From contig JBAZBP010000001.1 in assembly GCA_041671365.1 (NCBI GenBank), positions 453,518 to 517,517 on the forward strand: 64,000 nt of DNA, written 5' to 3'. Shown here in pieces: positions 36,724 to 37,400 of this stretch. Source of the stretch: Patescibacteria group bacterium. GTDB lineage: Bacteria > Patescibacteriota > Patescibacteriia > Patescibacteriales > UBA12465. Both the position numbers and the translations under genes were made by a program. The number at the start of each line of letters is the position of its first letter. Position 1 is the first letter of the stretch. The notes under the pieces are model-generated. The model was not told the origin of the DNA and ran no database searches. It worked only from the letters and a program-made list of their open reading frames with translations.

Positions 36724-36744
36724 GCTCCCGGGGTCGGATTCGAA
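36724..36744. repeat. 21-bp direct repeat (tRNA-proximal att site)
   Basis: Identical to 26460-26480. Covers tRNA-Asn positions T54 to G73 plus 1 nt. Confidence 0.9.
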
Positions 36745-36762
36745 CCGACGACCAATTGGTTA

Positions 36763-37314
36763 CACTTATCCACTAGTTTCCTAATGGGGTGGACTATATC
36801 ATCACCCGCCTTGGGCGGGTGCGAGGCGCTTCCTGCTCTAAAATTAGAGAAGTACTCCCTTTCGGGATAGTCTCTGAACCTTCCCTGAAAATCAGGGCTC
36901 GGCTGCTGATTATCATGTCCTTACGGATTTAGACTTCCAGCAATTCACCTCGTTATTCGACCTCAATTACTTGAGGAAGCTGCGTAGAACCTTCGTGCAC
37001 TTCTCGATGACAATTTGCGCATAATAATACACATTTATCGAGCTCTTTCCTTATCACTTTCCAGCTCCTGGTATAACCTTTAGCAGAAATGCCAAAGTCT
37101 TTTTTACCAGGCTCCCGATGATGAAATTCTAAAGCCTTTAAACATTTATTATAACCACAAACAAAACATCTATCACTTTTGTACTTAATAGCCATCTGAC
37201 GGGTTGACTTTCGTCTTTTGTCAACAGCTTTTTTTAAATACTCGGCACGATCGGAATATTTTCTTTTATCTTTTATCATATGAAAACATTATAACAAAAG
37301 ATAAAAAAGATTTC
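36763..37314 (-). ncRNA. group I self-splicing intron (IA-like architecture) with an ORF in the P1 loop
   Basis: Core elements P AATTGCTGGAAG (36945-34), Q AATCAGCAGCC (36911-01), R GTTCAGAGACTA (36879-68) and S GATATAGTCC (36800-791). P3 is cgagg/cctcg, P7 is gacta/tagtc, and a GAAA-tetraloop hairpin is tccc-gaaa-ggga. The 5' exon ends in U and the intron ends in G. Confidence 0.85.
36953..37279 (-). CDS. intron-encoded HNH homing endonuclease
   Basis: 108 aa; CFVCGYNKCLKALEFHHREPGKKDF...CVLLCANCHREVHEG gives the CxxC...HH...CxxC-H...H HNH zinc-finger nuclease pattern. The stop codon abuts P3. Confidence 0.85.
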   Translation of the reverse strand: MIKDKRKYSDRAEYLKKAVDKRRKSTRQMAIKYKSDRCFVCGYNKCLKALEFHHREPGKKDFGISAKGYTRSWKVIRKELDKCVLLCANCHREVHEGSTQLPQVIEVE

Positions 37315-37400
37315 ACAGCCAACTGCGCTACCGCTGCGCTACCCGGGAATATTTAATTGTCTTAAAAAACAAAATATTTCTATAGAAATATTTACTAATA

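Follow-up and report, generated by a model that had tools for sequence, protein, structure and literature searches.

A tRNA-Asn(GUU) gene of a Patescibacteria genome, very probably split at position 35/36 by a subgroup IA group I intron with an HNH endonuclease gene

Group I introns in the tRNA genes of Patescibacteria were surveyed by Nakagawa et al. (mSystems 2026, PMC13011429; bioRxiv 10.1101/2025.07.03.662931), who analysed 95 complete genomes; introns inserted between positions 35 and 36 of tRNA-Asn(GUU) were found 15 times, and HNH (PF01844) genes were present in four of the 15. Nearly all tRNA introns of these bacteria were assigned to subgroup IA and none to IC, and subgroup-specific covariance models placed 25 of the 28 tRNA introns at position 35/36 in IA. 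Precise, GTP-dependent self-splicing at 35/36 was demonstrated in vitro for a member without an open reading frame (ORF), that of GCA_016700035.1, by sequencing the ligated product and with an omega-G mutant as control. The same paper credits the class, 'Asn.4Ug', to the tFind preprint of Williams (bioRxiv 10.1101/2020.01.27.920355), whose abstract reports 21 cases of intron-interrupted tRNAs. Endonuclease genes were also recorded elsewhere, PD-(D/E)XK in tRNA-fMet introns and LAGLIDADG in tRNA-Arg(CCU) introns, and intron-bearing and intron-less copies of one anticodon rarely share a genome (PMC13011429). In this survey of complete genomes endonuclease-bearing IA introns at 35/36 occurred in Patescibacteria only, a picture that draft genomes might change (PMC13011429). 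The present work concerns a tRNA-Asn(GUU) gene on the minus strand of a 64-kb stretch of DNA (contig JBAZBP010000001.1 of a Patescibacteria group bacterium; the whole stretch is called the window), which is very probably split between U35 and U36 by a 552-nt subgroup IA intron carrying an HNH gene (Table 1). The family to which the intron belongs is already described: papers dated 2020 to 2026 report it and demonstrate self-splicing.

The evidence for the split gene starts from its exons. Once these are joined, ARAGORN returns a tRNA-Asn(gtt) of 73 nt with a regular cloverleaf and a 7-bp acceptor stem; on the unspliced window the program calls no tRNA, and with introns allowed it makes a wrong call, Tyr(gta). 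The joined 72-nt exons have annotated tRNA-Asn genes as their top BLAST matches in E. coli records, and the alignment with E. coli tRNA-Asn (90% identity, positions 7-66) crosses the splice junction. The tRNA body shows the U1-A72 pair and G73, while CCA is absent from the encoded exon 2. The final six nucleotides of exon 1 (37320-37315) form the 5' strand of P1, and U35 is the U of the U.G pair at the splice site. When 75 homologous loci are read in the same way, U-1, omega-G and a GUU anticodon are found in 75/75, the presence of U-1 and omega-G being a condition set by the locus search itself. Boundaries at 35/36 are the sole reading that is universal among the homologues. Both exons, the length of the intron and the identity of the tRNA are as the initial annotation, made from the sequence without database searches, had given them.

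The intron is matched by the group I model of Rfam, RF00028, a search that the initial annotation had proposed as a check. The match covers 36770-37038 on the minus strand and the full-length model (1-253), with 83.8 bits where the gathering score is 50 (E = 7.8e-20), and it is the sole Rfam match at gathering level within the window. Covariation was studied in 38 loci having the core type of the window, aligned over the ribozyme part from the guide to exon 2. From these introns RNAalifold independently recovers P2, P3, P4, P5, P6/P6a, P7.1, P7.2, P8 and P9. For the pair count P7 was added as a pseudoknot and one RNAalifold helix was removed as spurious, namely the pairing of the guide GCA with UGU over the 3' splice site, which arises because exon 1 is absent from that alignment. 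Standard pairs then fill 97.1% of the cells versus 78.1% in column shuffles (none of 500 shuffles reaches 97.1%), and control partners slid by 1-3 columns are paired in 29-49%. Changes on both sides are seen in 38 of the 55 pairs, with compensatory changes at four of six pairs in P4 and one of two in P5 (other helices in Table 1). Covariation is shown for nine helices.

The P1 guide and P7 never vary in the aligned introns, so that covariation is uninformative for both; the P7 strands are complementary. Indeed, the guide, GCAGCY, is nearly invariant in the 75 homologues, which accounts for the zero covariation of P1 among them. In the window U35 (37315) faces G36983 of the guide, and the intron ends with omega-G. 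Two covarying hairpins, P7.1 and P7.2, lie between P7 and the 3' strand of P3, and this is the arrangement of subgroup IA; the structural interpretation of the element as a group I intron with an IA-type P7.1/P7.2 insertion is thus supported by the sequence comparison. On all these points, from the P, Q, R and S elements, the guide and P2 to the U.G pair, the terminal G, the P6 and P8 helices and the IA-like hairpins, the structure drawn in the initial annotation is borne out by the alignment or found in its proposed place. Only P3 needs amendment: the helix is present and has compensatory changes, but it is 7 bp long (CGAGGUG/CGCCUCG) and not 5.

The ORF inside the intron starts in L1, 35 nt past the 5' splice site. 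P1', the whole of P2 and the start of J2/3 supply its last ten codons (TQLPQVIEVE), and its stop codon TAA (36955-36953) directly abuts P3 (36952). It had been described as filling the P1 loop up to P3; the start in the loop and the stop adjoining P3 hold, but the frame runs on through the 3' strand of P1 and through P2. In relatives the stop codon is placed inside P2, in J2/3 or beyond P3-P4, and in the last case a tail KQGELLEA is read from GGUGAAUUGCUGGAAGCC. By profiles and motifs the 108-aa product is assigned to the HNH endonuclease family, as predicted: it matches the PHROG HNH families 2255 and 3106 (1.1e-27 and 7.9e-25), and PF01844 is precomputed on several close homologues. Across 25 homologues no variation is seen at H53, H54, C83, C87, H91 and H95, and conservation is 90% or more at C38, C41, N89 and C90; together these residues make two CxxC pairs and an HH...N...H motif. 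In a profile search of PDB the CANCHRE motif was aligned to the HNH domain of McrA, 6ghc, with a marginal E = 0.028. More than 2,000 homologues of the ORF product were found. The product matches NCBI protein WC249_02430, from a 529-kb contig of a 'Patescibacteria group bacterium' metagenome-assembled genome (MAG), with 100% identity, in accordance with the Candidate Phyla Radiation host suspected from the start.

The window locus resembles the published tRNA-Asn 35/36 class in host phylum, tRNA, insertion site, IA core with P7.1/P7.2, HNH family and position of the ORF in L1. Four HNH-bearing tRNA-Asn rows were picked in Table S3 of PMC13011429 by intron length and sequence; the introns in these rows share with the window a common layout, in which the ORF is followed by ..GCAGCUUCC, the P2 hairpin and GGUGAAUUG. 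The window endonuclease shares 64 of 101 residues (63%) with that of GCA_023898525.1. For the ribozyme, identity to four published introns is 74-79%, with 79% to GCA_026016225.1; an IC3 control reaches 70% of fewer aligned columns, or 59% of the 221 nt of the window, so that global identity discriminates weakly and is not relied on. The window copy differs in that it comes from a MAG outside the 95 surveyed genomes, and it has no exact match to the sequences listed in those rows. The self-splicing copy of GCA_016700035.1 is without an ORF and has another insertion between P7 and P3'.

The classical, self-splicing IC3 introns of tRNA-Leu(UAA), tRNA-fMet, tRNA-Ile and tRNA-Arg are, like that of the window, group I introns of the anticodon loop and likewise have U at -1 and omega-G, and some classical bacterial tRNA introns also carry endonuclease genes (PMC13011429). 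They differ in subgroup, in being without P7.1/P7.2, in their sites (33/34, 34/35 and 36/37) and in the endonuclease families. In a phage collection the nearest ribozyme cores, over ~185 nt from P6 to P9, are those in psbA of Synechococcus phage S-SRM01 (73%) and in the terminase gene of Vibrio phage 1.193.O (68%); these introns, in contrast, sit in protein genes, and their endonucleases, where present, are of other families or otherwise placed. Phage contigs contain hundreds of relatives of the HNH core, with a tRNA-Asn context in 1 of the best 80 viral loci. The idea that the element is phage-borne was rejected on this count and on the genes that flank the tRNA upstream, since the tRNA-Asn gene lies downstream of dnaG and rpoD.

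The initial annotation had regarded an IA-like, endonuclease-bearing intron at 35/36 of tRNA-Asn as unusual, and known bacterial tRNA introns as small, ORF-less and IC3. The second statement is outdated in view of the PD-(D/E)XK and LAGLIDADG genes mentioned above; the first is not supported in view of the published tRNA-Asn introns, four of them with HNH genes, and the claim of novelty fails.

Relatives of the window endonuclease were sought in one genome per GTDB species. They are encoded in at least 544 genomes, and the context was checked at the best 80 genomic loci among these. A complete tRNA-Asn(GTT) gene, split at 35/36, surrounds the endonuclease gene at 74 of these 80 loci; five further ones are cut by contig ends and have Asn exon 1 (...GCTGT) upstream, which brings the association to 79 of the best 80. 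The sole exception, L061 (CAIJYI010000038.1), has the endonuclease gene without tRNA context. At this locus, with features at 622-884 (-) and 1028-1345 (+), about 140 nt separate the endonuclease from an RF00028 match (74 bits) on the opposite strand; to judge from this layout, the endonuclease gene may lie next to a group I intron of some other gene or run antisense to it.

Among the matches listed, the nearest loci are in MAGs of Falkowbacteria, Magasanikbacteria and Parcubacteria. The endonuclease is also found inside tRNA-Asn 35/36 under labels other than Patescibacteria: Acidobacteriota (Pyrinomonadaceae), Omnitrophota, Elusimicrobia, Edwardsbacteria and Aerophobetes (L049, L058, L060, L068, L069, L077, L078, L081; L041, L057, L067; L051, L055, L075; L063; L079). 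One of these loci, L060, is OY970389.1, a 5.5-Mb chromosome (Pyrinomonadaceae/Acidobacteriota), and the exon sequences of the non-Patescibacteria loci differ from those of Patescibacteria. A number of TPA_asm records (L003, L007-L010, L012 and others) have Patescibacteria-type tRNA-Asn exons and near-identical introns under the title 'uncultured Gammaproteobacteria bacterium'; as taxonomic labels of those MAGs, such titles are probably mistaken.

At tRNA-Asn 35/36 the endonuclease is combined with three ribozyme-core variants. Besides the core of the window there are type B (L052, L065, L071, L072, L082), with the pattern …GGATAACGGTGAA…CGTAGAGACTAGATAC…, and type C (L043, L044, L047, L049 and others); L052, the type B representative, does not reach the RF00028 gathering score. 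The core of type B resembles that of published tRNA-Tyr, tRNA-Asp and some tRNA-Asn introns. The existence of core variants suggests either that the endonuclease moved between introns or that the ribozymes diverged strongly.

Upstream of the endonuclease start codon the intron contains a promoter-like site of its own. A -10-like box in the matching position is found at 38 of the 75 homologous loci versus 111 of 1620 random positions (7%); where the homologous introns (loci L003-L082) have the box, it is of the extended -10 form TGnTATAAT, with 6-9 nt between its end and the endonuclease start, mostly in the sampled Patescibacteria loci. This internal box suggests a separate, nearly leaderless endonuclease transcript.

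A course of events for the locus may be proposed. The pre-tRNA would be transcribed from the upstream site at ~37427-37400, presumed from its consensus match to act as promoter. The intron would fold into P1-P10, with P1 made by exon GGCUGU and guide GCAGCU; an exogenous guanosine held in P7 would attack after U35, the terminal G would then take its place, and exon ligation would give the anticodon loop CUGUUAA, with the junction GGCUGU/UAACCAAU. Splicing of the window copy in this manner is to be expected by analogy with its homologues. P1', P2 and the start of J2/3 double as the 3' end of the ORF, so that one RNA molecule could not be translated and fold as a ribozyme at the same time; a separate endonuclease mRNA would be needed because that end is read from P1', P2 and, in some copies, P3-P4. 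The endonuclease would probably be produced from the intron-internal extended -10 promoter, on a nearly leaderless mRNA that does not include the 5' splice site. The enzyme would cleave tRNA-Asn genes that have no intron, near the anticodon-loop DNA, and the intron would spread by homing when the break is repaired from the intron-bearing copy; the activity and target of the enzyme, like the internal promoter, are predictions from the sequence. Most likely, the intron is functional, a self-splicing IA element whose HNH homing endonuclease is active or was so recently.

A broader proposal is put forward only tentatively, as one that may well not hold in full. The endonuclease and its intron might constitute a unit specialised on tRNA-Asn 35/36, with a spread and mobility far beyond what the survey of complete genomes suggests, present in at least several hundred species-level genomes, having crossed phyla and combined with at least three core variants; in Patescibacteria its endonuclease might be expressed from the internal extended -10 promoter as a leaderless mRNA without the 5' splice site.

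Several points speak against a functional intron with a homing enzyme. P1, the weakest element, consists of just 6 bp, two of them G.U pairs, and homologues with A31 in the exon still have GCAGCU, which leaves a mismatch in P1. Splicing of the window copy is predicted from its sequence and its homologues, and the copy number of tRNA-Asn is read from the 64-kb window only. The internal promoter is a consensus match, missing in about half of the homologues, notably outside Patescibacteria. On the protein side, the ORF scores 20.5 bits with Pfam HNH (PF01844), slightly under the cutoff of 21.4; its AlphaFold model is moderate (mean predicted local distance difference test score 72.9); and Foldseek finds no significant match in PDB (none with E < 1), the top non-significant ones being mostly HNH nucleases (Cap5, T4 endonuclease VII and Cas-HNH).

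The borderline Pfam score would fit an intron that splices while its HNH ORF is inactive or kept for another role, and that is now inherited vertically only. This is unlikely, in view of an ORF that is full length and has every invariant residue of a family with so many homologues; furthermore, one and the same endonuclease occupies one tRNA-Asn site in differing exons of several phyla and is joined to at least three variants of the ribozyme core, the pattern expected from continuing or repeated homing. An active or recently active homing endonuclease is thus preferred.

Still less probable is a decayed intron that no longer splices, the split gene being a tRNA pseudogene and Asn being decoded by another copy elsewhere. 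The weakness of P1 and the examination of only 64 kb of the genome agree with such a relic, but all conserved core elements, U-1 and omega-G are intact, the exons give a perfect cloverleaf and every helix of the window copy fits the covarying consensus; a strong promoter-like site and a terminator-like hairpin accompany the gene, and intron-bearing and intron-less copies, as said, rarely coexist (PMC13011429).

Finally, a tRNA-Thr(UGU) gene with the intron at 33/34, for which both splice sites move by two bases (exon 1 ending ...GGCU, the intron ending ...AAG and exon 2 starting UGUAACC), is hardly credible: brute-force ARAGORN does call Thr(tgt) 33/34 in the window and in most homologues, a result that ARAGORN and tFind often make (PMC13011429), and the window has U at -1 and G at omega under this reading too, but omega-G is then found in just 64 of the 75 homologues, the anticodons are inconsistent (TGT in 71, CGT in 4), U33 lies opposite a guide A and not the G needed for the wobble pair, the tRNA body and its best matches are those of tRNA-Asn, and the sequenced splice product of a homologue is 35/36 (PMC13011429).

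The guide GCA is also complementary to the UGU lying across the 3' splice site (U, omega-G and U36; 36983-36981 with 36764-36762), and the columns concerned (alignment A2, 5-7 with 270-272) are invariant in 38/38 sequences. UGU at the 3' splice site mimics the 5' exon's end, which makes the two-base-shifted annotation as Thr(UGU) possible.

Around the split tRNA-Asn gene, the other features of the window concern mainly its 3' side. The att-like repeat was not detected by a search over 29 nt that allowed 3 mismatches, and a repeat search then gave a pair of 21-nt copies; these are perfect and bracket ~10.26 kb (26481-36723). The repeat is a matter of context, separate from the intron. In gene content the repeat-bounded region looks like an integrative element inserted in exon 2 of the intron-bearing tRNA gene. 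The exonuclease VII large subunit is split in two ORFs; the gene could be frameshifted or pseudogenised, or the region composite. The methyltransferase and the adjoining DUF6996/DUF6997 protein may be a restriction-modification-like pair. A second terminator-like hairpin occurs past the distal repeat, near 26416-26459.

Table 1. Features of the split tRNA-Asn gene, its intron and the neighbouring region (window coordinates; compensatory changes counted in 38 homologous introns)
Feature	Coordinates	Strand	Sequence, evidence or remarks
tRNA-Asn exon 1, positions 1-35	37315..37348	-	TCCCGGGTAGCGCAGCGGTAGCGCAGTTGGCTGT; 3' end ...GGCUGU
tRNA-Asn exon 2, U36 to discriminator G73	36725..36762	-	TAACCAATTGGTCGTCGGTTCGAATCCGACCCCGGGAG
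Group I intron, 552 nt	36763..37314	-	5' GAAAUC, 3' ...AAGUG; U-1 and omega-G (36763) both present
Internal guide sequence GCAGCU (P1 3' strand)	36978..36983	-	pairs with exon GGCUGU, including the U35.G wobble
P2 hairpin CCUCAA-GUAA-UUGAGG, GNRA loop	36961..36976	-	6/6 pairs with compensatory changes
P3 5' strand CGAGGUG	36946..36952	-	pairs with 36828-36822; 3/6 counted pairs compensatory
P3 3' strand CGCCUCG	36822..36828	-	RNAalifold and pair count
P4-P5 domain	36901..36942	-	P element AAUUGCUGGAAG, P5 hairpin with GUAA loop, Q element AAUCAGCAGCC
P6 base GCC/GGU and P6a CCCUGA/UCAGGG	36878..36903	-	base invariant; 6/6 P6a pairs compensatory
P7 5' strand GACUA, guanosine-binding helix	36868..36872	-	inside R element GUUCAGAGACUA; invariant 38/38; aligns to P7 of RF00028
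P7 3' strand UAGUC	36792..36796	-	inside S element GAUAUAGUCC; invariant
P7.1 hairpin UCCC-GAAA-GGGA	36856..36867	-	2 pairs compensatory, 97% of cells paired
P7.2 hairpin CU.CUC ... GAG.AG	36832..36852	-	5/5 pairs compensatory
P8 hairpin CACCCGCC-CAA-GGCGGGUG	36803..36821	-	6/6 counted pairs compensatory
P9 hairpin CCAUUAG-GAAA-CUAGUGG	36770..36787	-	5/6 pairs compensatory; then tail AUAAGUG to omega-G
HNH homing-endonuclease ORF, 108 aa	36953..37279	-	PHROG profiles, conserved motifs, homologues
Intron-internal promoter-like site	37288..37316	-	GTGAAA, 17-nt spacer, TG-TATAAT; -10 box ends 8 nt before endonuclease ATG
Promoter-like site of the tRNA-Asn gene	37400..37427	-	TTGACA, 16-nt spacer, TG-TATTAT; consensus scan, 11/12 matches; ~50 nt upstream of exon 1
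Intrinsic-terminator-like hairpin and T run	36690..36721	-	right after the tRNA
21-nt att-like direct repeat	36724..36744	-	TTCGAATCCGACCCCGGGAGC; equals tRNA 3' end; second copy 26460-26480
Tyrosine integrase	35572-36684		tRNA end of repeat-bounded region
HTH_17 excisionase-like gene	35348-35563		tRNA end of repeat-bounded region
Rolling-circle Rep	34605-35315		tRNA end of repeat-bounded region
HerA/DUF87-like ATPase	30770-33049		repeat-bounded region
Exonuclease VII large subunit (xseA), two ORFs	29047-30758 region	-	30078-30758 OB fold and N-terminal part; 29347-30009 C-terminal part
Weak xseB-like ORF	29047-29337	-	after the split xseA ORFs
N6/N4 DNA methyltransferase	28088-28951	-	within repeat-bounded region
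DUF6996/DUF6997 protein	27295-28083	-	adjoins methyltransferase

As regards annotation, standard tools miss the gene, and genomes with a split tRNA-Asn missed in this way seem to be without tRNA-Asn, which lowers their completeness estimates; this point is already in the literature. No new biological principle emerges from the locus, which is another intact case of an essential single-copy tRNA that would rely on a ribozyme in a reduced genome. The scans contribute two points: the HNH-bearing form is common, and it extends beyond Patescibacteria. Its wide spread bears on the published question of the horizontal movement of these introns.

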